A stretch of 64,000 nucleotides of DNA from Capsulimonadaceae bacterium. Lineage in GTDB: Bacteria > Armatimonadota > Armatimonadia > Armatimonadales > Capsulimonadaceae. Of the stretch, positions 8,901 through 55,004 are shown piece after piece. The stretch is taken from positions 4,352,001 through 4,416,000 of the forward strand of contig OZ244065.1 in the NCBI GenBank assembly GCA_965215505.1. Reading direction: 5' to 3'. Under the pieces are notes generated by a model. It searched no databases. It saw nothing but the letters and a program-made list of their open reading frames with translations, and was not told the DNA's origin. Numbering within the stretch: the first letter of the stretch is position 1; each line of letters starts with the position of its first letter. The position numbers and the translations under genes were made by a program.

Positions 8901-9521
8901 GACTGGCCGGGGGTCGCTTACGCCGCCGGACTGACCGCAAACCTCAGTGCCATTACTATTAAACACGCTCTTGTAGGACTGACCGCTGATACTGCTAACC
9001 TGAACAACTGCACCTTCACGCAGAACAGCACTGGTGTTTTAGTCAACAACGGCGGCGGCACCTACCGGAACTGCTCCTTTACGCAGAACCGAATAGCAGT
9101 CCAGAACAACAGCACCAATGTCGTGGATGCGCGGGGCAACTTCTGGGGTGATCCCACCGGCCCCTACAATGCCAAGAGCAATCCGGGTGGCCTGGGCAAT
9201 GCCGTCAGTGATTATGTGTTGTTCGGAACACTATCGCCTGTGCTGACTTCCCTGACGTTTCCCTCCCCGGTCCCCTGCGGCACCGTCCTGACCGCCACCG
9301 TGACACTCAGCAGCGCCGCCCTTTCTGATACCGTCGTCGGCCTGTCCAGCAGCGACCCATCCGTCGTGCGCGTCTCGCAGTCTGTGGTCATCCCGGCGGG
9401 GGCCAGCAGCGCGACGTTCGCGATCAACACGTTCCGCAGCCACACGACCAAGACGGTGACGCTCCGGGCGGCGCTGGACCAAGTAGCCCAAACGAATGAC
9501 CTAACCATCACGGGAAGGTAA
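5919..9521 (+). CDS. Large secreted protein with PKD domains, right-handed beta-helix repeats and a C-terminal Ig-like domain
   Basis: Signal peptide; YQWTVDG and TWNFGDG PKD motifs; Asn/Ser/Gly ladder repeats; DARGNFWGDPTGP; visibly lower GC than flanks; TATAAT at 5875. Confidence 0.8.
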   Translation: MKTWKQAVHTLFLLCGLLLLFVPCAKAQLTDDGKVDVVQAHFHFTNLDGSAISHDVLTTVLKTPLPNASTSTNYTVTYLDAGLLLSNYMDQKQKFDSGNYSEYTIDFDRLLVEDLSAWLGLFGIETWLSATDVYDFIASHGSTFKSQLTQNLEDSSLDIFNAVGNQYTTTQTVTETYGELGSDIYGKFGAATDGIYALYDTLEAFRQVTVNNMLAVYMRNCFGTDDESDANAWLVAEVEAGNSLVRDDLDRIHLDCRYAYALKQKLGVIQPDLDQYTSDVKALLVGGVKITYTPDAYALHAPVQVNMNASGSTGTFGSSITSYQWTVDGSQVSTSSTYTGAYFAVGQHTVQCTVTDSTGTQITGKDTINVGPPPIQVTNFDPDHLTATVTTPANSLVNNPNGCTWNFGDGSAPVVSSTSTPVPHTFPSGQVYTVTLTEATFVDTTVTGTTSVNFTPNPTDVYSYALTNSEDWGISGSPYRIHGTLTIPVGVRLTLEPGVVLQFDNRAGINVYGKLISNGQSSPKQRVYLTSYRDNSPPSLPSPGTDAGQSGDWQGLTFFPGSFGTLTACVIREALNGAAGDIPVIAGAIFDRSPVSTNSPIALTVSGNVFNASGLSILNSNSQAGSRDVSVSGNSFGSGSSATFSYSLGVLTMSGNTSGDGVPVPFNLGLANSSSLSLSGANTWTPQPGVHLINYGLFVMAGATLNLGSGLVIQNYVYSSSYVAGDLRGPTSGSPAILTALGDASPYGGTDSAGNSDWSGVAYAAGLTANLQGIVIRHAGYGVQGLPTIITGGTFDRCDQAIGVDRTSTDYYQGTPRTIPLTLSGNTFLSSRVSTNSPVALTVSGNVFSGSGLSILNSNSQAGSRDVSVSGNSFGSGSSATFSYSLGVLTMSGNTSGDGNPVPFNLGVANSSGLSLSKINAWTPQPGVHLINYGLFVMAGAILNLGSGLVIQNYVYSSSYVAGDLRGPTSGSPAILTALGDASPYGGTDSAGNSDWPGVAYAAGLTANLSAITIKHALVGLTADTANLNNCTFTQNSTGVLVNNGGGTYRNCSFTQNRIAVQNNSTNVVDARGNFWGDPTGPYNAKSNPGGLGNAVSDYVLFGTLSPVLTSLTFPSPVPCGTVLTATVTLSSAALSDTVVGLSSSDPSVVRVSQSVVIPAGASSATFAINTFRSHTTKTVTLRAALDQVAQTNDLTITGR
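7701..8945 (+). repeat. Intragenic ~530 bp near-identical duplication (7701-8231 and 8415-8945)
   Basis: Segment VSTNSP...AAGLTANL occurs twice with a 714 nt period and near-identical DNA. Confidence 0.92.
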
Positions 9522-10339: not shown

Positions 10340-11446
10340 ATGCACGAAGACCACTACTACATGCGCCGCGCCCTGCGGCTCGCCGCCCTCGGACGCCACG
10401 CAAGCCCGAACCCGATGGTCGGGTGCGTCCTCGTCAATGACGCGGGCCGGATCGTCGGCGAGGGCTGGCACCCGCAGCCGGGACAGCCGCACGCCGAGGT
10501 CTTCGCCCTGCGCGATGCCGGTGTCCTGGCGCGGGGGGCGACCGCCTTCGTGACCCTGGAACCCTGCGCGCATCATGGGCGGACGCCGCCCTGCGCGGAC
10601 GCTCTGCTTGCGGCGGGCGTCCGGCGCGTGGTCGCCGCCATGACCGACCCGGACCCGCGCGTCGGCGGGCAGGGGCTGGAACGGCTCCGAGCGGGCGGGG
10701 TAGAGGTGTCCGTCGGGGTGGGGGAGGCGGCGGCGCGGGCGCTGAACGCGGCCTACCTCAAGCACCGCACGACCGGCCTGCCCTGGGTCGTGCTGAAAAC
10801 GGCCATGACTTTGGACGGCAAGATCGCGACCGAGACGGGCGACTCGAAGTGGATCACCTCCCCTGTCGCCCGCCGTGCCGTCCACCGACAATTGCGGGAC
10901 CGGTGCGACGCCATCCTGACCGGGGTGGGGACCGTTCTGGCCGACGACCCCGCTCTGACGACCCGGCTGATGCACCGACAGGGCCGTGACCCGTGGCGCA
11001 TCGTCGTGGACAGCCGCCTGCGGACGCCGCTTGACGCGCAGGTGGTCCGGCAGGCGGCGGGCGACGGGAAGACGATCTTCGCGACGACCGCCTTGGCCGA
11101 CCCGGCACGGCGGGACCTGCTGCTCTCCTCGGGCTGCCAGGTCCTCGTCTGTGGCGACGACGCGGGCCGCGTCTCGCTGCCCGACCTGATGCGCCGCCTG
11201 GGAACCCGAGGGGACATCATCGGTGTTCTTGTAGAGAGTGGCGGGGCGCTGGCGGCGGGCTTGCTGTCTGCAAGCCTAGTAGGGCGCTGGCTCTGCTTCA
11301 TCGCCCCCAAAGTGGTGGGCGGACGGGCCGCGCCCGGACCGGTCGGCGACCTGGGCACTGCGCTCATGCGCGACGCCCGCGCCGCCTCGTTCCGGCGGGT
11401 GCGCCGCTGCGGGCCGGACATCGTGATAGACGCCCGCTTTGGGTAG
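10340..11446 (+). CDS. ribD: Bifunctional riboflavin deaminase/reductase
   Basis: PNPMVG, PHAE, LEPCAHHGRTPPC, TLDGKIAT, DDPALT. Confidence 0.97.
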   Translation: MHEDHYYMRRALRLAALGRHASPNPMVGCVLVNDAGRIVGEGWHPQPGQPHAEVFALRDAGVLARGATAFVTLEPCAHHGRTPPCADALLAAGVRRVVAAMTDPDPRVGGQGLERLRAGGVEVSVGVGEAAARALNAAYLKHRTTGLPWVVLKTAMTLDGKIATETGDSKWITSPVARRAVHRQLRDRCDAILTGVGTVLADDPALTTRLMHRQGRDPWRIVVDSRLRTPLDAQVVRQAAGDGKTIFATTALADPARRDLLLSSGCQVLVCGDDAGRVSLPDLMRRLGTRGDIIGVLVESGGALAAGLLSASLVGRWLCFIAPKVVGGRAAPGPVGDLGTALMRDARAASFRRVRRCGPDIVIDARFG

Positions 11447-11489
11447 AATGCCCATACCAGATCATTTCGGGAGGTGAGGAGACCGCGCC

Positions 11490-12167
11490 ATGTTTACAGG
11501 AATCATCCAAGAAGTCGGCCGAGTCGAGGCCATCGAGCGCGGCGAGCAGTCCGCCCGATTCACCATCCGCGCCGGGCATACTTTAGACGGCGTGAAGCTC
11601 GGCGACAGCATCGCCGTCAACGGCGCGTGCCTCACCGTGGTCCAGTCCGAGCTGGGCACCGTCGCTTTTGATGCCATCTATGAGACCTTGCAGAAGACCG
11701 CCCTGGGCGCGCTCGCCATCGGCGATGAGATCAACCTGGAGCCGAGCCTCGCCGCTAATGGCCGCTTCGACGGTCACATCGTCCAGGGCCATGTGGACGG
11801 CGTCGGCACCATCGCCTCCATCCGCGAGGTGGATAACTCCTATTACATCTACATCACCGCCTCCCCGACCCTCCTCCGCTATATCGTCCGCAAGGGCAGC
11901 ATCGCGATAGACGGCATCTCGCTCACCGTCGTGGATGCCGACGACAAGACATTCTCCGTCGCCATCATCCCCCACACCTGGGACCACACCAACCTCCACA
12001 TCCGCCGTGCGGGCGACCAGATCAACCTCGAAACCGACATCGTTGGCAAATACATCGAGAAGCTGGTCGGCGGCGACTACCTCCGCGCCGAGACGACCCC
12101 CCTCCGCATCGCCGACCTGGAGCGCAGCGAGCCGGCCCGTTCCGGCCCGATGACCGCCTACCGGTAG
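11490..12167 (+). CDS. ribE: Riboflavin synthase (alpha chain)
   Basis: MFTGIIQE, GDSIAVNGACLTV, GHIVQGHVD, INLETD. Confidence 0.97.
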   Translation: MFTGIIQEVGRVEAIERGEQSARFTIRAGHTLDGVKLGDSIAVNGACLTVVQSELGTVAFDAIYETLQKTALGALAIGDEINLEPSLAANGRFDGHIVQGHVDGVGTIASIREVDNSYYIYITASPTLLRYIVRKGSIAIDGISLTVVDADDKTFSVAIIPHTWDHTNLHIRRAGDQINLETDIVGKYIEKLVGGDYLRAETTPLRIADLERSEPARSGPMTAYR

Positions 12168-12175
12168 TAGTCAAT

Positions 12176-12436
12176 ATGACGCACCTTTTGCAGATACCTA
12201 CCCCTGCCGCGCAGATGGAGATGACGGAGGCACTCGCCTCAGCGGTCGCGGCAGCGGCTAAACTTTCCGTTGAGGATCAGAACTACATCGCTTGGCGCAT
12301 CATGGAAGAGACCGCTGAAGAACAGAAGTGGACTGACAGCCTCGCCGGCTCCCTCGATGTTCTCGACCAAATGGCAGCGGAAGCTTTACAGGAACATGCT
12401 GAAGGCAAAACACGGCCTTTGGAAGAGCTTTTGTGA
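12176..12436 (+). CDS. Putative antitoxin
   Basis: LSVEDQNYIAWRIMEE and LDQMAAEALQEHAEGKTRPL; GTGA overlap with the downstream RelE-like gene. Confidence 0.7.
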   Translation: MTHLLQIPTPAAQMEMTEALASAVAAAAKLSVEDQNYIAWRIMEETAEEQKWTDSLAGSLDVLDQMAAEALQEHAEGKTRPLEELL

Positions 12437-12703
12437 ACTCCAAAACCAAGGAGAGCTTCCGCAAGCGCTTTGAGACTCTTCCTGACGATGTCCGCATCTT
12501 GGCGCGACAAGCCTACCGGCATGGCGACAAGACCCCTGGCACAGCAGCTTGCAGTTTAAGCAGGTGCATCGGAACAAGCCCTACTACTCCGTTAGGATCG
12601 GGCTGCACTGGCGGGCCATGGGGTGAAGACCGGCAATGAGATCGTGTGGTTCTGGGTCGGCTCCCATGCCGAGTATGACGGGCTGCTCAGGCAACTGAGG
12701 TGA
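12433..12703 (+). pseudogene. RelE/ParE-like toxin with two single-base frameshifts
   Basis: Three frames join as MNSKTKESFRKRFETLPDDVRILARQAYR / WRQDPWHSSLQFKQVHRNKPYYSVRIGLHWRAMG / VKTGNEIVWFWVGSHAEYDGLLRQLR*; shifts at ~12521 and ~12622. Confidence 0.8.
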
Positions 12704-12753
12704 TGTGGGTGCCATTCATGGCGCATCGAACTAGACGTAGAACAGAGGCGCAG

Positions 12754-14007
12754 ATGCCGGACAACCCGTTTAACACAGTCGAAGAGGCCATCGCCGACCT
12801 GCGCGCGGGCAAGATGATCGTCCTCGTGGACGACGAAGACCGCGAGAACGAGGGCGACTTCGTCATGGCCGCCGAACACATCACGGCGGAGGCGATCACG
12901 CTGATGACCCGCCGCGCCTCGGGCATCATCACCGTCCCCATGCCCGAGGAGCGGCTGCTGGCCCTCAACCTGGAGCTGATGGTGCGCGAGAACAGCGAGT
13001 CCATGCGGACCGCCTTCACGATCACCGTGGACGCCAAAGAGGGCACGACGACCGGCAGCAGCGCCGCCGACCGCGCCCTGACCATTCGCCGCCTGGCCGA
13101 CCCGCAGGCGAGGCCCTCCGACTTCAACCGGCCCGGCCACGTCAACCCGCTCATGGCCCGCAACGGCGGCGTCCTGAAACGGGCGGGCCACACCGAGGCC
13201 GCCGTGGATCTCATGCGGATGGCCGGGCTTCAGCCGGTGGGCGTCATCTGCGAGATCATGGGCGACGGCGGCGACATGGCCCGTGTCCCTGAGCTTGCCG
13301 AACTGGCGCGTCAGTTCGACCTGAAGTTCATCACCATCGCCGAGCTGATCAAGTACCGGCGGCGGCGCGAGAAGCTGATCCATAAGGTCGCCTCCGCCAA
13401 GTTGCCGACCCGCTACGGCGAGTTCATCGCCCACGCCTACGAGAGCGACGTGGACCCCGCGCCCTATACGGCTTTCACTATGGGCGACATCGCCGACGGC
13501 AAAGACGTTCTAGTGCGGATTCACTCCTCCTGCGTCACCGGGGACCTGCTAGGCTCGCTCAAGTGCGACTGCGGCGATCAGCTCCACCTCGCTTTGGAGA
13601 AGATCGCCGAGGCCGGGCGCGGCGTCCTGCTCTACATCGAGCAGGAGGGGCGCGGCATCGGCATCACCAACAAGATCAAGGCTTACGCCTTGCAGGACGC
13701 GGGCGCGGACACGGTCGAGGCGAACGTCGCCCTCGGCTTTAAGCCGGACCTGCGTGACTACGGCATCGGCGCGCAGGTGCTTGTGGACCTCGGGGTCAAG
13801 CGGCTGCTCTACATGACCAACAACCCGGCCAAGCTTGCCGGTCTGGAGGGCTACGGCCTGGAGATCGTGGACCGCATCCCGCTCCACTCGCCCCCGAACG
13901 CCTCCAACCGCCGCTACATGGAAACCAAGCGGACGAAGATGGGCCACCTGCTCGCCGAGGACCTGCCCGCCCCGCTGGACGAGCAGGACGGCCCGGAGGC
14001 GGCTTAG
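12754..14007 (+). CDS. ribBA: Bifunctional DHBP synthase / GTP cyclohydrolase II
   Basis: DDEDRENEGD, RAGHTEA, RIHSSCVTGD, CDCGDQL, EGRGIG, TNNP; start set at ATG 12754. Confidence 0.97.
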   Translation: MPDNPFNTVEEAIADLRAGKMIVLVDDEDRENEGDFVMAAEHITAEAITLMTRRASGIITVPMPEERLLALNLELMVRENSESMRTAFTITVDAKEGTTTGSSAADRALTIRRLADPQARPSDFNRPGHVNPLMARNGGVLKRAGHTEAAVDLMRMAGLQPVGVICEIMGDGGDMARVPELAELARQFDLKFITIAELIKYRRRREKLIHKVASAKLPTRYGEFIAHAYESDVDPAPYTAFTMGDIADGKDVLVRIHSSCVTGDLLGSLKCDCGDQLHLALEKIAEAGRGVLLYIEQEGRGIGITNKIKAYALQDAGADTVEANVALGFKPDLRDYGIGAQVLVDLGVKRLLYMTNNPAKLAGLEGYGLEIVDRIPLHSPPNASNRRYMETKRTKMGHLLAEDLPAPLDEQDGPEAA

Positions 14008-14011
14008 AGGA

Positions 14012-14148
14012 AGGGCCGACACACAGGTCGGCCCCTACGGGCATACGGCCACTGCGTAGGGGCGTACCTGCGTGTGCGCCCTTCTGGCTCCGTGTGCGCC
14101 CTGTGATCTGCCTGCTCCGTTCCCCTCCGACTCCCCCAGAATTGGGGG
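14012..14148. repeat. REP cluster: inverted GTAG-REP doublet (14012-14038 minus, 14056-14082 plus), a partial third unit and a CCCCCA-GAAT-TGGGGG palindrome
   Basis: GTAG-GGGCCGAC-CTGTGT-GTCGGCCC and GTAG-GGGCGTAC-CTGCGT-GTGCGCCC; palindrome at 14133-14148. Confidence 0.75.
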
Positions 14149-14196
14149 CCGCGGGGCGATTTCTTGTGAACATTTTGGGGAGAATTGTCGTATAAC

Positions 14197-14664
14197 ATGG
14201 TGACACACGAGGGAATGATGACCGCTTCCGGCCTGCGCTTCGCCGTCGTCCTGAGCCGGTTCAACTCGCTGATCGGGGACCGGCTTTTGGAGGGCGCGCT
14301 GGACACGCTCAGGCGGCACGGGGCCTCGGACGACGACATCACGCTGGCCCGCGTGCCCGGCGCGTTCGAGATACCCCTGGCCGCCTCTGAGCTGGCGAAG
14401 GCCGGAACTTTTGACGCCGTGATCTGTTTAGGTGCTGTGATTCGGGGCGCGACCGCGCACTTCGATTACGTCGCCGGCCCGCTGGCGTCCGGGCTGGCGA
14501 GTATCGCCGTCCAGACCGGCGTGCCGGTTCTGTTCGGCGTCCTGACGACCGACACCATCGAGCAGGCCCTGGAACGGGCCGGGACCAAGGCCGGCAACAA
14601 GGGCGCGGACGTTGCCGCCGCCGCCATCGAGATGGCGAACTTACTGCGTGAAATCCGCGTATAA
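14197..14664 (+). CDS. ribH: Lumazine synthase
   Basis: [36 protein letters not shown]. Confidence 0.97.
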
Positions 14665-46200: not shown

Positions 46201-48285
46201 CGTGACGTGGACGTCCTTGACGGTCGTGGCCGCCCCTTTGCCGTCCGGCGTGTCCGCCTCATAGCCCGCGCTGACCTCGACATCCTGACCCGGCAAAGGC
46301 GCGTCCGAGGCGTTCCGGGCTGAAACCGTGACCGTCACCGCGTCGCCCTTGTGGCAGGCGTAGACGTCCGGCGTCGCCTTCAGCGAGAACTCGCCCTGCG
46401 CGACCGTCACCTTGCCCTCCGCGCTGACCGTGTGGCCGGAAGCGTCGTCCACGTCGGCGTCTACCGTGTATTCTTCGTCCCCGCCCGGCTCGCCGCTCCT
46501 GGTCGGCAGCCGCAGGAAGGCCTGGCCGTTTCCGTCCAGCGTGACATCCTTCTCGACCGTCGGCTCGCCGCCCGTGTCGGGGCTGTCGCCCGTGTTCTCA
46601 CTGCCGCCGCTGCTGAAGCCGCGCAGGATCACCTTCGCCCCGCTCACCGGCGAGCCGTAGTAGTAGGCCGCCGTGACCGTGGCGTCTACGGTGTCGCCAT
46701 GCACATAGCGGGGGGCGGAGAACGTCACCGTCGCCTGATACTCGGGCTTGTGGTAGGCGGCGACGCTGAACGTCGCCGACTCCCGGTGGCCGTCAATGAA
46801 GGCCTTCACCGTGTATTCGCCCGTCAGGGCCTCGGGCGAGAGGCTCAGGACGGTGTTCCACGACCCCAGCGCGTCCGTCGCCGTGTCCTGGTGGCTGACG
46901 AGGTTGTCCTGCGGGTCCCGGATGTCCAGGGTCACGGGCCGGGCCGCTGGCACCGCGAAGCCCCGGCCCTGGTCGAACCACCGGCTGATGCCCTCCAGAT
47001 TGACGGCCTGGCCGGGCCGGTAGACGGGCCGGTCGGTGTAGAGGAAGGCGCGCAGGGACCGGCCCGCGATGCTCGCCGAGGCGGCCGGGTCTGCCTGGTC
47101 GCCGCCTTCGGCGTCTGCATCGTCCGACGCCCCGTTCCTGCCAGGCGTGTTCAGGCCGAAAGACAGCGCGACCGTCGAGCCGCCCGCCTGCGCCACCAGA
47201 ATGCCTTCGCTCTCCGCCGATGCGCCCGCCGCCGAGAGCCGGGCCAGGCCGTCCGCGCCGGTCGTCGCTTCGCCCATAAGGCGGCTCGTGCCGGCCTCGG
47301 CGAACAGCCTCAGACGCGCGTGGGGGACGGGGCGGCCCGTCGCCAGATCGGTGACGAACGCCAACGTCCGCGTCCCGAAGGTCTTGCGGATCAGGGCCAG
47401 GTTCGTCACGCGCACCCAGCCGGTCGCCGTGACCGTCTTGGCGTCCTCGTCCGCCGTCGCCGTCACCCGGTACAGGCCGGGCGAGAGCGGCCCGAGCGGG
47501 ACGCGCTCGTAGAACGATCCCTCCTTGTCTGCGTCGCCGACGGTGTAGGTCCAGTGCCGCAGGGGGGTGAACTCGCCGCGCCAGAGCGGCCCCGGGCCCT
47601 CGGCGTTGTCGTGGACGGAGCGGGCCAGCAGGGAGGGCTTGTGGCCCAGCGCGCCGCCGACGTCCAGCCTGTCCAAGCGCAGGTGCAGGACGCGCGTCAG
47701 CAGAGCGCCTTGCAGGGGCAGCAGGGGAGTCTCGGCGGGCGTCCAGTCCAGCGTCGTCGCGGTGAAGTTCAGCGTGGACTCCTGCCGCTTCAACGGGATC
47801 GTGATCTGCGCGGCCTGCTCCTCCAGCACGACCACCGTGTGGGTGTCGTCGGACGAGTGCAGGCTGGTGGAGGCGCTGACCGCGTACTCGCCGACCCGGA
47901 CGTGGGCCAGCTCAAACCGCCCCTGGGCGTCCGTGTGGGTGCGCCACTCCGTCCGGGGCGCAGCGGAGCCGCCGGACGGGCCGACCTCGGCGTCATCTTT
48001 GCTGTCCTGCGTCCAGCCGAGCGGCGGCTCCGCCACGGCCTGCATGGAGGTTTCCACGTCCTGGACGGCGTCTTCGCCGCTCTTGGTATCATCTTTCAGC
48101 GACAGGGACACGTCGGCATCGGCCAGCGGCAGGCCCGAAACAGAGTCCACGCAGACGCCCCGGACCGTTCCGGTCGGCGGCTGGGACCAGGCCAGGGCCG
48201 CGCAGATCAAGGCGGTCAGGGCGATCAGGAGGGTGAGCAGCAGGCGTCGCCGCCGGTCGTCAGGCACGAGGGCGGGACGTGACAT
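43285..48285 (-). CDS. Bacterial alpha-2-macroglobulin family protein lacking the thioester motif
   Basis: TDRPVYRPG, PDTLTTWR, GGWGWF, VVEEPLPAG, RDDKV, TPGDY; YPYESTDAT in place of YPYGCxEQT. Confidence 0.9.
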   Translation of the reverse strand: MSRPALVPDDRRRRLLLTLLIALTALICAALAWSQPPTGTVRGVCVDSVSGLPLADADVSLSLKDDTKSGEDAVQDVETSMQAVAEPPLGWTQDSKDDAEVGPSGGSAAPRTEWRTHTDAQGRFELAHVRVGEYAVSASTSLHSSDDTHTVVVLEEQAAQITIPLKRQESTLNFTATTLDWTPAETPLLPLQGALLTRVLHLRLDRLDVGGALGHKPSLLARSVHDNAEGPGPLWRGEFTPLRHWTYTVGDADKEGSFYERVPLGPLSPGLYRVTATADEDAKTVTATGWVRVTNLALIRKTFGTRTLAFVTDLATGRPVPHARLRLFAEAGTSRLMGEATTGADGLARLSAAGASAESEGILVAQAGGSTVALSFGLNTPGRNGASDDADAEGGDQADPAASASIAGRSLRAFLYTDRPVYRPGQAVNLEGISRWFDQGRGFAVPAARPVTLDIRDPQDNLVSHQDTATDALGSWNTVLSLSPEALTGEYTVKAFIDGHRESATFSVAAYHKPEYQATVTFSAPRYVHGDTVDATVTAAYYYGSPVSGAKVILRGFSSGGSENTGDSPDTGGEPTVEKDVTLDGNGQAFLRLPTRSGEPGGDEEYTVDADVDDASGHTVSAEGKVTVAQGEFSLKATPDVYACHKGDAVTVTVSARNASDAPLPGQDVEVSAGYEADTPDGKGAATTVKDVHVTTGADGSATATVTATQNGLLTVHAGGTDRRGNKVTADTDVWVPGDTADADRALPARLSDLSVVLDRAKYTPGQTAHLLVNTAHPGPTALVTLEGTTLYRAFTVALTRHSNAVDLPVTLDDAPSVRVKVCAVNGKQFESSEATLTVDDDRRGLLVSLSTDKTAYHPGDSATILVHTRDAQGSPVPAEVSLGVVDGAVYAIKPEPPGTIGDAFQPAQEDAVETDYSCKVETLGDVDKGGTSIDIRRKFPDTALWKPALLTGPDGNIAVHFTLPDTLTTWRITSYGHSSDTRVGKAVAAVTVGKDLLVRLETPLFLVAGDTGRLIGLVHNNTAGTIHATIRLSAPGLGVSGDAARTVDVEPGRPARLTWTVTAPDAVAANGTPPVPVQMTASGGGLSDGVEEPVPLLPHGVMQNVWHSGTLLHDVSQSVTLDPSAIQGASRLTVRLAPSISTTLLPATVWISGYPYESTDATGSALLCDAAALGAPGLVTDAGTRARLQNVARRSALRLVRLQGDGGGWGWFSTSKPDVWMTAWAAWALTQARSGGLPVPAKVQKAANETLASLANAERGHGHPDEANVSLAALALAAGGDVKDARANLHWLQRRWRGPDALPRPADLARAALAEQALGGEEAGEARTLMRRLWEVGRQTGSLVSWAGGGHRTAEGAGAEMPDAEATAWALLAAEAVTPDDARIDGAARWLMTARSGDHWVGPVPTAVAVRALAIYAARGGESSPNFQAYVLVNGHEVRAVRFTPDSADRPEVSLDVPGTALQIGENTVSLRKVGTGRLYYSLELRQCLTQPAPDPPTPLLARVWNAVFRPGGAPLPPAPSGYRIRRTYMRTTSRRNWLWEDTVPTPDTHLNAGEGVLVRLIINATRPASRVVVEEPLPAGFRVAEASGDDTADWSNWWDYTDVRDDKVVFFISDLTPGQHEIDYHLQAATPGDYDVMPPQMGSAVDPALSVLGKTAHLTVDGKD

Positions 48286-49726
48286 CCGCGTCCTCCTTCC
48301 GCGCCGGGCTGCCCGTCACCGTCAGGCGCAGGATCAGCGCCGACGCCCCCAGCAGGATGAGGGCGACGCGCACGGCGCGTGTCGGCTCCGCGACGTGCCC
48401 GATGAGCGGCAGGAACTGGAACAACATCAGGCCGAGCAGAACGCCGCTGACGATGACCGCCTCCTGACGCAGCCGCGCCAGCCCGCCCGCCCCCGAAAGC
48501 AGCAGCCCGACTGCCACGCCCAGCAAAACGCCCGCCACCGAGCGCGGCTGCCAGATGTAATCCAGCAGCAGGGCGGGCAGTGTCAGGACGACGACCCATT
48601 GGAGCAGGACCGGCCAGCGCGCGCCGCGCGGGCCGTCCCCATTGGCCGCCCACTCCGACGCAAGCAGCGGCAGCAGCGCGCCCAGGCTGACCGCGAACAG
48701 GTCCCAGATGTCGCCCGGCCCGCTGGCGTGGACCGCCGCGCCGTTCTGCAAGGTCGCCAGCCGGTAGACCAGTAGGACGGCGGCGAAACCCATGCCGACG
48801 CGCCCGGCCCGCCCGCCGTCCTCGGAAAGTAGGGCAGGCCCGGACACCAGCCAGCCGCCCAGAATGAGCAGGGCCAGACCGTAGCCGGACCACAGGGCGA
48901 AGGCCAGGGCGCTGCCCGATGCCAGCAGGACCAGCCCCGCCGAGGAGGATTGTCGGTCGTCCCCCGCGCCGCGCCCCGTCCGGACCAGCAGGCCGAACAC
49001 GACGGCCCCCAGCGTCAACAACTCCAAGGGCCGCCAGGAGGGCGCGACCCGCGACAGCGGCAGCAGGACCAGGAGGATGGCCGCCGCCAGGGGGCCGAGG
49101 GCCGAGGGCCGCCGCGTCCGCCCGGCGAATGCCGAGGCCAGCGCGCCCGCCGCGCCCAGCAGCAGGGGGACGTCCGCCCAGAATTCCTGGTTCCGCGCCG
49201 AGGCCCGCCCGAACCCGATCAGGACCGCCCCCGCCAGGCACACCAAATAAAGCAGCCCGACCACCGCGCCGCCCCCGCCGCCTTCCGCGTCGGGGTCCAG
49301 CAGGGCCGGGGCGACTCCGAGGCACAGCACGGCCAGGGCCGCCCCGATCATCAGCGCGGTCAGCCCGGTCACCTCCCCGTGCGTCAGCCACAGCCGCCCC
49401 GCCGCGACGACGGCCGTCCCCAGCCCGAACATGGGAGCAGCGGAAGCCGCCCCGGACCGACGCCGTGCCAGGGCGCAGAGCGCCCAGCCGCCCGATGCGC
49501 CCAGGGCGATGCCGCGCGCCGCCATGAAGTCCGCGCCCGACGCGCCCAGCCGGACCATCGCCAGGCCGAGCAGCAATGTCGCCGCCAGCCAGACGGCGTA
49601 AAACGAACGTGGAAGGGTTGGGGGCGCGAGTCGGCGCGCGGCGCGGCCGGCCCCCGCGCCGAGGGCCAGGGTCGCCATGCCGATCACCAGGGCCAGCCAG
49701 GGCAGCAGCCAGAAATGAGTCGCCAT
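48260..49726 (-). CDS. Polytopic hypothetical membrane protein
   Basis: Many hydrophobic helices; GAGGAG RBS; overlaps the macroglobulin start. Confidence 0.75.
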   Translation of the reverse strand: MATHFWLLPWLALVIGMATLALGAGAGRAARRLAPPTLPRSFYAVWLAATLLLGLAMVRLGASGADFMAARGIALGASGGWALCALARRRSGAASAAPMFGLGTAVVAAGRLWLTHGEVTGLTALMIGAALAVLCLGVAPALLDPDAEGGGGGAVVGLLYLVCLAGAVLIGFGRASARNQEFWADVPLLLGAAGALASAFAGRTRRPSALGPLAAAILLVLLPLSRVAPSWRPLELLTLGAVVFGLLVRTGRGAGDDRQSSSAGLVLLASGSALAFALWSGYGLALLILGGWLVSGPALLSEDGGRAGRVGMGFAAVLLVYRLATLQNGAAVHASGPGDIWDLFAVSLGALLPLLASEWAANGDGPRGARWPVLLQWVVVLTLPALLLDYIWQPRSVAGVLLGVAVGLLLSGAGGLARLRQEAVIVSGVLLGLMLFQFLPLIGHVAEPTRAVRVALILLGASALILRLTVTGSPARKEDADVTSRPRA

Positions 49727-49809
49727 GAGTCTCCTCAAGCCGCCGCGCGGCACCCGTGCGGGCGGGGTGGCTTGGAGGATGGATTAGACGCGGGGAGGGC
49801 TTTTTCCTG

Positions 49810-50436
49810 CTACGGGTCCGCCTGCCCCACCAGGGCGGCGCGATACCCCGCACCGACATCCAGGTCGTGGCAGGTCCACCGCGCATCCGCCGTCGGCGTC
49901 GCCGCCGAGGAGAGTCCCACGCCCAAAGCTTTCAAGAAAGCCTCGTGCCGGACCCAGGCCCGCGTGAAGGCGGCGGGCCGGTCGGCGGGCGGCAGCGAGG
50001 ACAGCCGCGCCGCCTCCCCGGCGGGCAGATACCGTCCGGCCAGCGACACGGCGGCGAGGTCGGGGCAGACGCGCTCGATGTCTATGCCGACCGTGCGGTC
50101 CCAGGCCAGCGCGAACAGGGCCACGCCACCGCAGTGAGACAGGTTGAAGCCCAGGGCCGCGCCGTCCCCTTCCAGGAAAGGCTTGCCATGCTCGGTATAG
50201 TGGAAACGGAGCGAGGCAGGCGGGCAGCCCAGGGCCTCGCCGAGCAGCCCGCGCAGCAGGCCGCGGGCGGCTTCGAACCGGTCCGCGTCGAGCGGGCGGT
50301 GGAAGCGGGCCGCCCGTGCGCGCTCGTCCGAGGAGAGGGAGAGTGCCAGTGCGTCCCGCTCCCCCGGCGGCAGGTCCAGATCCGCGCGCCAAACCCCGAT
50401 GCCCGGCGTCAAGACCTCAACCGGCGTCAAGCGCAT
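49810..50436 (-). CDS. Sfp-type 4'-phosphopantetheinyl transferase
   Basis: GKP, FNLSH, VGIDIE, WVRHEAFLKALGVG. Confidence 0.93.
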   Translation of the reverse strand: MRLTPVEVLTPGIGVWRADLDLPPGERDALALSLSSDERARAARFHRPLDADRFEAARGLLRGLLGEALGCPPASLRFHYTEHGKPFLEGDGAALGFNLSHCGGVALFALAWDRTVGIDIERVCPDLAAVSLAGRYLPAGEAARLSSLPPADRPAAFTRAWVRHEAFLKALGVGLSSAATPTADARWTCHDLDVGAGYRAALVGQADP

Positions 50437-52993
50437 CAAGGCAGGCCCCCAGCCGGTCTCCCAGCGCGCCGACGTCTCCCAGCAGGCAGGTGACGTGCGT
50501 CCCCGGCACGTCGCACACGGTCAGGGCCGGCGCGACCTCGCGCCACAGGGCGAACGGGTCGCCGGGGAACGTCTCGGGGTCGTCGGCGGCGCGCAGCAGG
50601 TGGACCGGGCCGGCATAGGGGCGCGCGACATAGGCCGCCGCCGCCCGGTCGCAGTCCTCGATCAGACCCGCCCCGCCGCGCCCCTTCGCCCGCCGGCCCC
50701 AGCTCTGCACCAAAGCCCAGGCCGGCAGCAAGGCCTGCTGCCAGGCGAGGAAGCGCTGCGCGCTGCCCGCCAGGCGGCGCAGGGCCAGCCGGAGCCGGGG
50801 GTTGATGGCGTGGACCTCGATCAGCGCCAAAAACTCGACCGTCTCGCCCGAGGCGGTCAGCATCCGCGCCATCTCGTAGCCGATCAGGCCGGACCCGCAG
50901 AAGCCGCCGAGCCGGTAGGGGCCGTGCGGCTGGGCCGCGCGCACGACCGCGACATATTCGGCGGCCAGGCTCTCGATCGTCAGCGGCCCGCGCCCCCGCT
51001 CGGTGGGGGCGTGGAGGAGGAGCATCGGCTGGTCCGCGTGCAGGCGGCGGGCCAGGTGGTGCGCGTAAAACCCTCCCAGCGGGTAGTAGCCGTGCAGATA
51101 GAAGAAGGGCCGACGTGAGCCGCCCGCGAGCGGCGTCGGCGGCGGCATCGGGGCGGGTGCCTCGTCCCGGCGCAGGAGGGCAGCCAGGGCCTCCACCGTC
51201 CCGCCCTCGTACAGCGCGGACACCGGCACGGAACGGCCGCAGGTCTGCGCGATCCGGTCCAGCAGCCGGGCTGCCAGCAGGGAATGCCCGCCCAGTTCCA
51301 GGAAATCGTCCCGGATGCCGACGGGCCGGATGTCCAGCAGGTCCTCCCAGACCTGCGCGAGCTGCTGCTCCAGGGGGTTCCGGGGCGCGATAAAGTCCGG
51401 GCCGCGCTCCCGCAACTCCCCGGCGGGCGGCGGCAGGGCCGCCCGGTCCCGCTTGCCGCTGGGCGTCAGCGGCAGCGCGCGCAGGGGGGCGACGACGGCG
51501 GGGACCATGTGCGCGGGCAGAGTCCGCGCCAGGAAGTCGCGCAGGGCTGTCCCGGTCGGCGAGGTCCCGGCCCGCAGGACGACATAGGCCGCCAGCCGTT
51601 TCTCACCCGGCCGGTCTTCGCGCAGGGCGGCGACGGCGTCCAGGATGTCCGGATGGCCCAGGAGGGCCGCCTCGATCTCGCCCAGCTCGATCCGGTATCC
51701 ACGCATCTTCACCTGCGTGTCCGCACGGCCGAGATAGTAAAGCTCCCCCCCGGCCCCTTGCCGGGCCAGGTCGCCCGTCCGGTACAGCCGCGCGCCCGGC
51801 GTCCGGTCGAAGGGGTGGGGTAGGAAGCGCTCGGCGGTCAGCACGGGCCGGCGCAGGTAGCCGCGCGCCAGCCCGGCCCCGGCGATGTAAATCTCGCCCG
51901 TCTCGCCCCCGGAAACCGGGCGCATGTTTTCGTCCAGCAGGAACAGCTCGGTGCCGGCTATCGGACAGCCGATGGGGATGGAATCGGGCAGCGGGTCGCC
52001 GTCCAAGCCGCGCGGAACCGTCCAGCAGGCCGCGTCAATGGTCGCCTCGGTCGGCCCGTAGACGTTGTGGAGGTCGGCCACGAGCTTCGCGTGGACGAGG
52101 CGCGGCAGGTCCGGCGGCATCGCCTCGCCGCCGCAGAACAGGTGCCGCAGGTCCCGGCACCGCACGATGTCCGGGTGCGCCAGCAGGACCCGGAGCTGGG
52201 CCGGGCCGAAGCCGGCCACGGTGATCCGCCGCTCGGCCAGCGTCCGGACGACATAACCGGCGTCCACCGTCCCGCCGGGGCGCATCAGGACCAAAGTCGC
52301 CCCCACCGTCAGCGGCCAGAAGATGGCCCAGACGGACGGGTCGAAGCTGAACGAGTACGACTGGAGCATCCGGTCGCCCGCTGTCAGCGGGAAGCACCCC
52401 TGACGCCAGTGCAGGTTGTTACAGGCCCCCCGGTGCGCCAGCAGGACGCCCTTCGGCTGCCCGGTCGAGCCGGAGGTGTAGATGACATAGGCCAGGTCGT
52501 CCGGCCCGGACCCGCCCGCCAGGTCTCCGCCCTGCTCGCCGTCCTCCAGGCCCGCGCCCAGGGGAATGACGCGCGCTCCGGCGGGGAGGAGGCCCCGCAG
52601 GCGCGGCTGCGCCAGGGTCAGGGTGGGCCGGGCGTCTTCCAGCAGGAAGGCCAGCCGCTCGGGCGGGTAGGCGGGGTCGAGCGGCAGGTACGCCCCGCCG
52701 GCCTTCAGGACGGCCAGCAGCGCGACGATCGTCTCCGGCCCGCCGTCCGCGCAGACGCCTACGACGGCGTCCGGGCCGGCCCCGTTTACCCGCAGGAGGC
52801 GGGCCAGCCGGTTCGCGCGCCGGTTCAGGTCCCCGTAGGTCAGGCGGCCGCCGTCAAAGACGACCGCGGGGGCGTCCGGCGTGCGTGCGGCCTGCGCCTC
52901 CACCATCCGGTGCAGGCATTCTTCCGTGCGGGCCGGATCGGCGCGGCGCGCGGCCAGGGCGGCTCGCGCGGCCAGGGCAGCTCGCGCGGTCAC
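50417..52993 (-). CDS. Stand-alone NRPS-like A-T-TE enzyme
   Basis: YVIYTSGSTGQPKG, YGPTE, YRTGD, SGKRDR; LGGHSLL carrier Ser; TE GGFCGSG and PGTH; GTG start overlaps the upstream stop (GTGA). Confidence 0.93.
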   Translation of the reverse strand: MTARAALAARAALAARRADPARTEECLHRMVEAQAARTPDAPAVVFDGGRLTYGDLNRRANRLARLLRVNGAGPDAVVGVCADGGPETIVALLAVLKAGGAYLPLDPAYPPERLAFLLEDARPTLTLAQPRLRGLLPAGARVIPLGAGLEDGEQGGDLAGGSGPDDLAYVIYTSGSTGQPKGVLLAHRGACNNLHWRQGCFPLTAGDRMLQSYSFSFDPSVWAIFWPLTVGATLVLMRPGGTVDAGYVVRTLAERRITVAGFGPAQLRVLLAHPDIVRCRDLRHLFCGGEAMPPDLPRLVHAKLVADLHNVYGPTEATIDAACWTVPRGLDGDPLPDSIPIGCPIAGTELFLLDENMRPVSGGETGEIYIAGAGLARGYLRRPVLTAERFLPHPFDRTPGARLYRTGDLARQGAGGELYYLGRADTQVKMRGYRIELGEIEAALLGHPDILDAVAALREDRPGEKRLAAYVVLRAGTSPTGTALRDFLARTLPAHMVPAVVAPLRALPLTPSGKRDRAALPPPAGELRERGPDFIAPRNPLEQQLAQVWEDLLDIRPVGIRDDFLELGGHSLLAARLLDRIAQTCGRSVPVSALYEGGTVEALAALLRRDEAPAPMPPPTPLAGGSRRPFFYLHGYYPLGGFYAHHLARRLHADQPMLLLHAPTERGRGPLTIESLAAEYVAVVRAAQPHGPYRLGGFCGSGLIGYEMARMLTASGETVEFLALIEVHAINPRLRLALRRLAGSAQRFLAWQQALLPAWALVQSWGRRAKGRGGAGLIEDCDRAAAAYVARPYAGPVHLLRAADDPETFPGDPFALWREVAPALTVCDVPGTHVTCLLGDVGALGDRLGACLDALDAG

Positions 52994-53949
52994 AGTGCGC
53001 TCCCCAGGAAGCTCGCGACGTCCTCGGACGTGATCTCCGGCTCGCCGGGCGCGACGTGGTCCAGCTTGCCCTGACGCATCCACCCTTCGAGCTGTTCCAC
53101 CAGGCTGAACAGGTGGTCGAACGAGTCCACGACGAACAGCAGCGGCTGGTAGAAGTTCGGCAGGAATCCCTGGTTGACCACCCATTCGAGCTGGAGCGAA
53201 TACCTCTGGACCTGTCTCGGGTCGGCGGCGCGGTCTATCTCGCTCCGGGAGCTGAGGAGTGCGCTGCCGTAGACCTTCACCCCGTCCCCCCCGCCCGGCG
53301 CGCGCATCAGGCCCGTCTCGATCGTGAACCAGAAGAAGCGCGCCATCGCCCGGATCATGCTCGTCAGTCGCCGTATCTTCTCCTCCTCGTCGGCCACCCC
53401 CGAGACCAGCTCGACCGCCGTGTGCGCGCACCGGCCGAACTGCACCAGCACGTCGGCGAAGGCCGGGTCGGTGTGCATCGGGACGTGACCGGTGATGTCG
53501 TGGAAGATGTCCGGCCAGGGGGAGAATGACTGCGCCGCATCCCGCATCGTCACCGTCGTCGGGAACTCGCGGCGGCGCAGGCAGTCGAAAAAGAGGAAGG
53601 CGGGCAAGTAGCCGCTGACGCCGATCGCCCGGAAGCCGGTCAGGGGCGCGAGGAAGCGGTTGACGTCCTCCAGGCGCGGCACCCGGTCCGGGTCGAGCCG
53701 CAGCGAGGCCAGCCCGCGCAGGAACGGCGCGTTCGCGTGCCGTACCCAGCGCGACTCCATCCCCGCATACAGCCGCCGCCAGGCGGCGTGATTCTCTTCG
53801 GAGTACAACTCGTAAGGCTGATGGATGAACCGCCGCCCCGCCAACTGGGCACCCTCGATGAAGGCCGATTTGCCCGTCGTCAGCCCGGTTCCCTCGGACT
53901 GTGAGAGTGACTTTTCGCTGTTCGAGAGTGACTTTTCAATGATCGCCAA
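52990..53949 (-). CDS. Pterin-dependent aromatic amino acid hydroxylase (PhhA-like) with an altered active site
   Basis: PDIFHDITGHVP (2 His), RFFWFTIETGL (Glu), YGSALLSS, YQP; start tentatively TTG 53949. Confidence 0.88.
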   Translation of the reverse strand: MAIIEKSLSNSEKSLSQSEGTGLTTGKSAFIEGAQLAGRRFIHQPYELYSEENHAAWRRLYAGMESRWVRHANAPFLRGLASLRLDPDRVPRLEDVNRFLAPLTGFRAIGVSGYLPAFLFFDCLRRREFPTTVTMRDAAQSFSPWPDIFHDITGHVPMHTDPAFADVLVQFGRCAHTAVELVSGVADEEEKIRRLTSMIRAMARFFWFTIETGLMRAPGGGDGVKVYGSALLSSRSEIDRAADPRQVQRYSLQLEWVVNQGFLPNFYQPLLFVVDSFDHLFSLVEQLEGWMRQGKLDHVAPGEPEITSEDVASFLGSAL

Positions 53950-54149
53950 GTGTCCATCCCCTGCGCCCCTATCTTGAAGACGGGACGCCCTGATGAACGT
54001 AAAGTGCAGATTCAGTGCCAACAATAAGGAAAATGGGGGGCGAGCGAGGAAACAGGTATATCACACAGGGTCGGTGTCAGGGGGAAAGTGTCAAGATTCA
54101 CAACGGCGCGGTGAGGCAGGCGACCATCAGGAACGCGGCCCGTCAGGAG

Positions 54150-54860
54150 TCAGGAACGCAGCCCGTAGCCGACCCCGCGCCGCGTCTCGAGCAGGTCGCC
54201 GGCCTGCACCGGTATCTTGGCGCGCAGCCGACGGATGTGGATGTCCACAGTCCTCTCGCCGCCCTCGAAGTCCACGCCCCAAACCATGTCCAGCAGGCGG
54301 TCGCGGGCGAAGAACTTGCCCCGGTGCAGCGTCAGGAAGCGCAGCAGATCGTACTCGCGCGGCGTCAGCGGGAGGATGAAGCCGGACGCGGAGCGCGCGC
54401 AGCCCGCGGCCAGGTCGAGGACCACGTCGGCGACGGTCAGCGTGTCGCCGGACTGGATGTGGCGCTTGCGGAAGCCCAGCAGGGACAGGCGGGCCAGCAC
54501 CTCGGCGGGCGCATAGGGGGGAAGCAGGAAGTCGTCGGTATAGGCGGGCCAGTCCGGCTGTTCCAGGTGCCTGGACGTCAGCAGGGCCAGCCGGGCGGGC
54601 GCGGGCAGCTCCTCCCCCCAGGCGTGCAGGAGCAGCCGCCCGGCGTGGCGCAGGGGCAGGCAGTCGGGGGCGGTGGAGAGGTCCGCCAGCAGGACGTCCG
54701 GGGGCCGGCCCTCGAAGGCGCGGCAGAGCGCGTCCATCGCCGCCGCCCCGTCGTCCAGGGCTGTCCGCTGCACGGCATAGCCGGCCAGCTTGAGGGCGCC
54801 GACGAGGGCGGCGGCGGGTCCGCCTTTTTCATTGGGGGCCAGGACGAGGACGTTCAGCAT
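54150..54860 (-). CDS. OmpR-family regulator with an atypical receiver domain, GlnR-like
   Basis: LTPREYDLL, VWG, RTVDIHIRRLRAKI, RGVGY; receiver lacks the N-terminal acidic pair and the conserved Lys; DW...DDFLL...PAEVLARL. Confidence 0.8.
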   Translation of the reverse strand: MLNVLVLAPNEKGGPAAALVGALKLAGYAVQRTALDDGAAAMDALCRAFEGRPPDVLLADLSTAPDCLPLRHAGRLLLHAWGEELPAPARLALLTSRHLEQPDWPAYTDDFLLPPYAPAEVLARLSLLGFRKRHIQSGDTLTVADVVLDLAAGCARSASGFILPLTPREYDLLRFLTLHRGKFFARDRLLDMVWGVDFEGGERTVDIHIRRLRAKIPVQAGDLLETRRGVGYGLRS

Positions 54861-54974
54861 GGCGGCACGGATCGTTTAAAGCACGGGTCGTTCGTGCGGG
54901 GATCAGCCGCGCCGCTGCGGGTGAGAGGTTTCTTGAGAGGTGTCTAAAGGAGTCCGCGTCAATGGGGTGATTCT

Positions 54975-55004
54975 ATTGTGGCACGGGAAGGGGGCCGGTG
55001 TCAA
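54975..55004 (-). promoter_or_regulatory. Sigma70-type promoter of the regulator gene
   Basis: Minus strand TTGACA-N18-CACAAT. Confidence 0.55.

Follow-up and report, generated by a model that had tools for sequence, protein, structure and literature searches.

A conserved cassette of a variant aromatic amino acid hydroxylase, a condensation-free NRPS-like enzyme and a phosphopantetheinyl transferase in uncultured Armatimonadota

Described relatives and layout of the locus

Pterin- and Fe(II)-dependent hydroxylases encoded beside nonribosomal peptide synthetase (NRPS) genes are represented by the phenylalanine 3-hydroxylases (Phe3H), such as PacX of the pacidamycin cluster and its homologues in the sanglifehrin, napsamycin and sansanmycin clusters. 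To our knowledge, these enzymes, which carry a Cys/Thr pair at two pocket positions, are the only kind of biosynthetic pterin-dependent ring hydroxylase to have been characterised. They supply a non-proteinogenic hydroxy-aromatic amino acid and depart at both positions from the Phe/Gly pair of the phenylalanine 4-hydroxylases (Phe4H), according to PMC7027792. Here, we describe a comparable arrangement in a stretch of 64,000 nucleotides (nt) from a Capsulimonadaceae bacterium of the phylum Armatimonadota (contig OZ244065.1, positions 4,352,001 to 4,416,000; hereafter the window), in which the gene for a pterin-type hydroxylase overlaps a gene for an NRPS-like enzyme with adenylation (A), carrier (T) and thioesterase (TE) domains, followed by a gene for a 4'-phosphopantetheinyl transferase (PPTase). 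The hydroxylase of the window also departs from Phe/Gly at both positions, but it has Thr/Ala rather than Cys/Thr and comes from the canonical Phe4H-like family, implying an independent origin.

The catabolic hydroxylase PhhA, for which the phenylalanine hydroxylase (PAH) of C. violaceum serves as reference, shares the fold and the metal triad with the window enzyme. It differs in that the window enzyme combines the Thr/Ala pair with further concerted pocket changes, lacks a PhhB neighbour and has as its coupled partner an NRPS-like gene rather than catabolic ones. The phhB gene, which encodes pterin-4a-carbinolamine dehydratase, is the usual operon partner of PhhA.

We know of few A-T-TE enzymes that stand alone and take alpha-amino acids. 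MysE (Ava_3855), from the biosynthesis of mycosporine-like amino acids, resembles the window enzyme in its A-T-TE architecture with no condensation (C) domain; its substrate is an alpha-amino acid, which leaves the enzyme through unusual TE chemistry (PMC10666671). Unlike the window enzyme, MysE has Ser and not Cys as TE nucleophile, a different A-domain code and a cyanobacterial host, and its companion genes for a dehydroquinate synthase-like protein, an O-methyltransferase and an ATP-grasp enzyme (mysA/B/C) are not present in the window. The A-T-TE architecture is also shared with enzymes of the atromentin, polyporic acid and ralfuranone type, in which the TE holds one aryl-alpha-keto acid while a second is loaded and both are joined (PMC9047271). 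These enzymes use alpha-keto acids, whereas the window enzyme retains the Asp that binds an alpha-amine (D218) and has no adjacent aminotransferase gene. A Cys at the catalytic Ser position of the TE is found in ObiF, SulM and AB3403; PMC10510592 associates such a Cys with unusual chemistry, citing ObiF and SulM for beta-lactone and beta-lactam release. Those enzymes are C-A-T-TE modules that act on acylated beta-hydroxy or beta-amino substrates, unlike the window enzyme, which has no C domain and gives no sign of a beta-functionalised substrate.

The three genes lie on the minus strand of the window:

52990..53949, minus strand: variant pterin-type aromatic amino acid hydroxylase, 319 amino acids (aa), identified by PF00351, NF008877 and alignment to C. 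violaceum PAH
GTG at 52993 to stop at 50417, minus strand: NRPS-like A-T-TE enzyme, 858 aa, identified by Pfam and by orthologue and TE alignments
49810..50436 or 50439, minus strand: Sfp/HetI-type PPTase, 208-209 aa, identified by PF01648 and PF22624

A preliminary description, made from the letters of the window, had proposed three overlapping genes on one strand, and the coordinates and overlaps were borne out. The TGA of the hydroxylase gene and the GTG of the NRPS gene share 4 nt, as GTGA, and the PPTase gene overlaps the 3' end of the NRPS gene by 20 nt if it starts at ATG 50436 or by 23 nt if it starts at TTG 50439. A database protein of 208 aa that is 100% identical to the PPTase fits the ATG start. 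For the hydroxylase, whose open reading frame (ORF) is open from 54024, the start was placed at TTG 53949. A Shine-Dalgarno-like sequence, GGGGA/AGGAG, lies 8 nt ahead of this codon and is kept in the related locus L002 (see below); it supports the start, as does a 319-aa database protein with 100% identity. The N-terminus of the NRPS orthologue P0001 is MTAR, as is that obtained from the GTG start. Two in-frame tandem duplications that are not present in orthologues were observed at 5' ends on the minus strand, one in the NRPS gene (18 nt x 2.4, window 52947-52989, Tandem Repeats Finder score 79) and one in the hydroxylase gene (21 nt x 2, at about 53895-53936, encoding EKSLSNS/EKSLSQS).

A Pfam scan of the 46 window ORFs of 90 aa or more identified AMP-binding (PF00501), AMP-binding_C (PF13193), PP-binding (PF00550) and Thioesterase (PF00975) domains in the A-T-TE protein, with no condensation domain (PF00668). 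The PPTase contains ACPS (PF01648, 45 bits) and AASDHPPT_N (PF22624, 37.9 bits) domains, which fits an Sfp-type enzyme; it scores 135.9 bits with the NCBIfam HetI model, under the cutoff of 370, and is not a HetI equivalog. None of the 46 ORFs contains a condensation or reductase domain, a second NRPS or polyketide synthase, or a pterin-4a-carbinolamine dehydratase; the preliminary description had likewise noted no condensation or reductase domain and no adjacent pterin dehydratase. A search of the literature, covering the full text of articles but not their supplements, found no description of a triad of hydroxylase, A-T-TE enzyme and PPTase, in line with the earlier statement that no characterised cluster of this architecture was known. 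The cassette is a conserved mini-cluster for which no description was found, with two enzymological oddities. In its logic it recalls a Phe3H that supplies a precursor to an NRPS, although its pocket lacks the Phe3H residues.

A variant hydroxylase clade that co-occurs with the A-T-TE gene

The hydroxylase belongs to the Biopterin_H family (PF00351; E 8.8e-32, 110.9 bits against a cutoff of 22.7). It clears the NCBIfam model for phenylalanine 4-monooxygenase, NF008877 (258.5 bits, cutoff 247), and falls under the cutoff of TIGR01267 (154.5 versus 264.75 bits). The best match among solved structures is C. violaceum PAH (PDB 1LTU and others; E 6e-38), whose iron ligands align with H150, H155 and E211 of the window protein, each of which is found in 22 of 22 sequences. 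R136, the Arg that binds the carboxylate, is likewise invariant in the alignment of hydroxylases, and its retention argues for a free amino acid as substrate.

The pocket of the enzyme differs from that of its canonical sister proteins at F142, W145, T153, T212, A230, L263, P264 and N265, and three acidic side chains are lost. Thr (T212) takes the place of the Phe after the iron-binding Glu, and Ala (A230) that of the Gly in the YGxG motif, at two positions that we take to be equivalent to F331 and G346 of human PAH. These are exactly the positions that control meta versus para hydroxylation in Phe3H, as reported from experiments in PMC7027792. According to the same source, the first position is Phe in Phe4H, TyrH and TrpH, the second is Gly in Phe4H, and all known Phe3H enzymes have Cys and Thr, respectively. 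Mutants C187A and C187S of Phe3H retain 100% meta hydroxylation, T202A gives 67% meta and 33% para, and the double mutant C187F/T202G moves toward para (PMC7027792). The window protein has neither the Phe and Gly of a canonical Phe4H nor the Cys and Thr of a Phe3H. It was thus rightly called a variant hydroxylase in the preliminary description, since both regiochemistry determinants and several other pocket positions differ from the canonical sisters. As to the further claim that its residues point to 3-hydroxylation, Thr and Ala are not the residues of the known Phe3H enzymes, so that meta-tyrosine (m-Tyr) is a product that we infer and not one that can be read from the pocket.

Phe3H and bacterial Phe4H are only 24-28% identical (PMC7027792), while the window hydroxylase is 64-68% identical to its canonical sisters; the enzyme therefore looks like an independent departure from Phe4H, separate from Phe3H. 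Two lists of 120 matches each were compiled, one for the hydroxylase and one for the A-T-TE enzyme. Among the 120 listed hydroxylase homologues, 36 carry the variant signature (F142, W145, T/C153, T/S212, A230, L263, P264, N265) and the other 84 have the canonical residues at the same positions (Y, E, A, F, G, E/A, I and D/H/G), with no intermediates. The residue after the iron-binding Glu is Thr in the variants, except for Ser in 4 of the 36, and Phe in all 84 canonical proteins; the Gly located 15-18 residues after that site is Ala in all 36 variants and Gly in all 84 canonical proteins. In a tree inferred without the signature columns, all 36 variants lie on one side of a branch with a support value of 97 in the Shimodaira-Hasegawa-like approximate likelihood ratio test, so that a single change is needed, and judged from these sequences the variant signature is of single origin.

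We tested co-location by comparing the homologue lists for exact matches in the size of the longest contig in nt. For 12 of the 36 variant hydroxylases, the contig size matched that of an A-T-TE orthologue with the Cys-type TE (including contigs of 6175, 6434, 7451 and 7912 nt), as compared to 0 of the 84 canonical hydroxylases. This zero excludes one coincidence at 4442 nt, which was set aside because a partial NRPS alone fills that contig, making co-residence impossible. Eight A-T-TE orthologues were size-matched with PPTase orthologues, and all three genes were matched on two contigs (7912 and 6434 nt). The pairing of hydroxylase and A-T-TE gene holds down to about 50% NRPS identity (P0030, P0043 and P0045). 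Direct inspection of DNA was possible in L002, a metagenome-assembled genome of Armatimonadota, in which a regulator, the hydroxylase and the NRPS gene succeed one another as they do in the window and the 4-nt overlap recurs. A search of genome contigs returned L001 and L002 as the only close loci, both of which run into contig ends; the remaining 22 loci were NRPS modules of a generic kind, exemplified by a 1408-aa protein in a multi-module cluster (L003).

Conservation of the translationally coupled triplet in other genomes, which had been proposed as a check, is thereby supported. One could still suppose that a housekeeping or catabolic PhhA has come to lie by chance beside an unrelated NRPS-like gene, since there is no PhhB or other clearly biosynthetic partner and the flanks encode nitrate assimilation, a part of primary metabolism, and glycoside hydrolases. 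Yet in two genomes the start codon of one gene overlaps the stop codon of the other, co-occurrence is confined to the variant clade, and the pairing is kept at low NRPS identity, which leaves chance juxtaposition with very little credibility. The arrangement is beyond chance because it recurs in relatives, and the named relatives of the cassette being Armatimonadota, it is a conserved cassette of an uncultured lineage in that phylum. We consider a functional link between the hydroxylase and the NRPS-like enzyme highly probable.

To place the Thr/Ala pair in a broader context, a wider sample of 151 rows was used, of which 95 cover the Glu and both pocket positions; the other 56 were dropped as fragments or with the Glu unaligned. 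Phe/Gly was found in 59 of the 95 and other pairs in 36. Thr/Ala occurred six times, with two of these cases being the window protein and the representative of its own cluster, and no Cys/Thr-type pair was present in the best 150 cluster representatives. Uncharacterised pocket variants thus seem common among bacterial hydroxylases, making up about one third of the representatives that cover the sites. Pairs other than Phe/Gly in the best 150 representatives include Tyr/Gly, Val/Ala, Met/Ala and Tyr/Ala.

The Thr/Ala pair was also found in a 242-aa Biopterin_H protein, annotated as hypothetical and 34% identical to the window enzyme, that is encoded on a Streptomyces tendae plasmid (NZ_CP043960.1; L025, 11974-12702, plus strand) and has Phe at the position of W145. 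Its gene comes straight after one for a stand-alone A domain and belongs to an NRPS-type cluster that also has MbtH, P450, TauD and GntD-like hydroxylase genes. If Thr/Ala does signify a change in regiochemistry, its presence in this distant protein would point to a broader class of biosynthetic hydroxylases that has so far gone unrecognised. In searches of plasmids with tblastn, the hydroxylase query gave only distant PhhA matches with at most 33% identity, and the NRPS query gave only generic modules at about 82% coverage.

The A-T-TE enzyme and a candidate pathway

The 120 listed A-T-TE homologues comprise 29 orthologues of the same architecture, 16 cyanobacterial A-T-TE proteins and 75 longer multi-domain NRPSs. 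Identity to the window protein is 49-77% for the 18 full-length orthologues that were aligned and 41-45% for the 7 aligned cyanobacterial proteins, which are of the stand-alone kind and represent the nearest full-length relatives outside the clade. No specific NCBIfam model exists for these cyanobacterial homologues. The core of the enzyme is kept, with all adenylation motifs, the A10 Lys (K514), the carrier Ser (S571) and the TE His (H833). Asp D218, which binds the alpha-amine, is present in all rows that cover the position; this indicates an alpha-amino acid substrate and rules out the dimerising type that uses alpha-keto acids. NRPS-like synthetases for alpha-keto acids have lost this Asp from their A domain, and an identity as a quinone or furanone synthetase of that kind was rejected for this reason.

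At the TE nucleophile position, Cys (C699 in the window) is found in 30 of 30 clade rows, that is the 29 orthologues and the window protein, and Ser in 16 of 16 cyanobacterial rows. The acid of the TE is Glu in 28 of the 30 (E726) and Asp in two, and the His is present in all 30. C699 aligns with the TE Ser of NocB and the TE Cys of AB3403, the closest solved TE (PDB 4ZXH), which fixes the register; the neighbouring Ser701 is not conserved among the orthologues. A Cys-TE that is conserved without an accompanying C domain implies a release chemistry still to be elucidated.

Specificity positions were set by motif, following GrsA numbering, and the mapping is validated by the standard-looking codes that the multi-domain matches then gave. 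The resulting ten-letter code, DPWGFGVIDK, is identical in 26 of the 30 Cys-TE rows. It has Gly at the equivalents of both position 278 and position 301, which suggests a roomy pocket.

Taken together, these features would be consistent with a compact specialised-metabolite cassette acting on a non-canonically hydroxylated aromatic amino acid, a reading for which we see the case as evenly balanced. A neofunctionalised pterin/Fe(II) hydroxylase would act on a free aromatic amino acid and, to judge from its residues, introduce a non-canonical ring hydroxylation. Hydroxylation that is non-para or otherwise non-canonical appears slightly favoured; the most likely single reaction would be Phe to m-Tyr, with Tyr to 3,4-dihydroxyphenylalanine (DOPA) or another regiochemistry as alternatives, although formation of m-Tyr in particular is a tentative proposal. 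The A-T-TE enzyme would then adenylate an alpha-amino acid, most simply the product of the hydroxylase, and load it on the carrier domain, itself made holo by the co-encoded Sfp-type PPTase. The domains for this step are present; that the substrate is the hydroxylase product is a proposition we hold at even weight with its negation. The aminoacyl group would be moved to the conserved TE Cys as a second thioester and released without a C domain. In the preferred version, the TE would condense its bound unit with a second, carrier-bound one into a homodimer or a product of the cyclodipeptide type, the main alternative being transfer to an external nucleophile. Dimerising release, proposed by analogy with other stand-alone A-T-TE enzymes, is itself unlikely.

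Several observations weigh against this reading. The hydroxylase passes the Phe 4-monooxygenase model and is close in identity to canonical-looking proteins, its Thr/Ala pair is not the Cys/Thr of proven Phe3H enzymes and has no experimental link to regiochemistry, and no gene for pterin biosynthesis or recycling was seen within the window. As for the co-occurrence, 24 of the 36 variant hydroxylases remain unmatched, many of them on contigs of 2-5 kb, and co-location was mostly deduced from matching contig sizes rather than seen in DNA. The preliminary description had held that the A-domain code points independently to a 3-hydroxylated aromatic substrate, and this did not stand: among the matches of the same search, Phe-type codes agree with DPWGFGVIDK in only 3 of 10 letters and Tyr-type codes in 2 of 10, the nearest codes being Gln-type with 7 of 10. 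Nearly the same code (DPWAFGVIDK and others) is carried by the 16 cyanobacterial Ser-TE homologues; if these have no hydroxylase neighbour, the substrate of the A domain may be unrelated to the hydroxylase. The A domains beside the Thr/Ala hydroxylase of S. tendae carry unrelated codes, and that locus was dropped as independent support for a link between hydroxylase and code.

The first of these points would suit a hydroxylase that makes ordinary L-Tyr from Phe, with pocket changes that tune kinetics or cofactor use and a cassette product derived from Tyr. The equivalog cutoff that is passed, the 64-68% identity to canonical family members and the intact metal- and carboxylate-binding residues all speak for such a para-tyrosine supply. 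We nevertheless find it improbable, as at least nine concerted pocket substitutions, which affect both regiochemistry determinants and remove three acidic residues, are fixed in 36 sequences, and a dedicated hydroxylase is not normally needed to provide an NRPS with Tyr.

The A-domain code bears on a different alternative, resembling MysE or Ebony, in which the A domain would load another amino acid, such as one with a polar or aliphatic side chain, and the Cys-TE would couple it to the hydroxylase product or a small acceptor to give an amide, ester or adduct. Proximity to Gln-type codes and distance from aromatic ones agree with this, as does the position of stand-alone cyanobacterial A-T-TE proteins as closest full-length relatives beyond the clade; MysE, a characterised cyanobacterial A-T-TE enzyme, needs no C domain to couple Ser with an acceptor that is not a peptide (PMC10666671). 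On the other hand, that source describes the A domains of MysE enzymes as mostly predicted to be specific for Ser or Gly, which DPWGFGVIDK is not, the window contains no mysA/B/C-like gene, and Gly at both the 278 and 301 equivalents suggests a large substrate. We regard the acceptor route as somewhat unlikely, though a serious contender.

Returning to the reading in which the A domain uses the hydroxylase product, its boldest form would make the clade a second, independently evolved type of non-para hydroxylase (Thr/Ala) feeding a C-domain-free NRPS-like enzyme whose Cys-TE joins two units or uses an outside nucleophile, with a new m-Tyr- or DOPA-derived molecule made from three genes, possibly under sigma-54 (nitrogen-linked) control; as a whole, this is a speculative and rather unlikely proposal. 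If true, a second pocket solution inside the canonical Phe4H family would amount to a natural experiment on how regiochemistry is set and could give a new biocatalyst for unusual tyrosine isomers. We know of almost no characterised natural products from Armatimonadota, and a cassette of three genes is compact enough to be expressed directly in a heterologous host.

Promoter, flanking genes and other features of the window

Two further features adjoin the cassette:

54006..54020, minus strand: sigma-54-type -24/-12 promoter-like element, TGGCAC-N5-CTGC, intergenic and upstream of the hydroxylase gene (in L002 at about 7249-7263, plus strand)
48260..49753, minus strand: polytopic membrane protein of 497 aa (GTG 49753) or 488 aa (ATG 49726), 56-83 nt downstream of the PPTase gene

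Transcription probably starts at the predicted sigma-54-type promoter just upstream of the hydroxylase. The window contains this one match to the motif, against an expectation of 0.27, and 25 of 100 shuffles gave at least one, so that the element is weak when taken alone. Its position and sequence (TGGCAC-N5-C/TTGC) are kept in L002, where the flanking DNA has diverged, and a second block, GTGAT.TACCTGTTTCC, located about 30 nt further upstream, is common to the window and L002. No gene for an enhancer-binding protein is adjacent to the cassette, no sigma-70-type promoter-like site was found in 47500-55000, and Rfam gave no match in the window.

The preliminary description had spoken of a minimal three-gene operon. 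Three coupled genes are indeed present; the word minimal may be too narrow, as the membrane protein gene follows the PPTase gene after 56 nt without a predicted terminator in between, and an alpha-2-macroglobulin gene overlaps the 3' end of the membrane protein gene in turn. The membrane protein has no match in Pfam or NCBIfam, MBOAT/DltB included, and its best Atlas score of 0.85 is uninformative; a single-sequence AlphaFold2 model is all-helical with a predicted local distance difference test score of 51, and about 16-18 helices are predicted. Such a neighbour raises the idea of a Dlt-like aminoacylation of the envelope, in which the amino acid activated by the A-T-TE enzyme would be handed via the membrane protein to a surface polymer or lipid. 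The close spacing and the many helices fit this idea, but the protein matches no family and the overlap with the alpha-2-macroglobulin gene suggests a different functional unit, so that we give envelope aminoacylation hardly any weight. The genes that come next encode a GH78 rhamnosidase, a fucosidase and a GH43 enzyme.

Upstream of the cassette, on the same strand, are genes for an assimilatory nitrate reductase, a NarK-type transporter, NirB, NirD and an OmpR-family regulator. The NarK-type protein, of the major facilitator superfamily, is the sole transporter nearby. The regulator (54150-54860, minus strand) ends the nasA-narK-nirBD string and has a weak GlnR-like N-terminal match, without a standard receiver-domain match. 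It occupies the same place in the gene order of L002 and probably serves nitrogen assimilation rather than the cassette.

Elsewhere in the window, a complete riboflavin operon (ribD, ribE, ribBA, ribH) was identified at 10340-14664 on the plus strand, preceded by a PIN-domain gene; no FMN riboswitch scored at or above the Rfam gathering score. A 1200-aa ORF with PKD domains (5919-9521, plus strand) is located in a stretch of low G+C content (58-62%, as compared to about 68-70% elsewhere) and might be a horizontally acquired surface protein.

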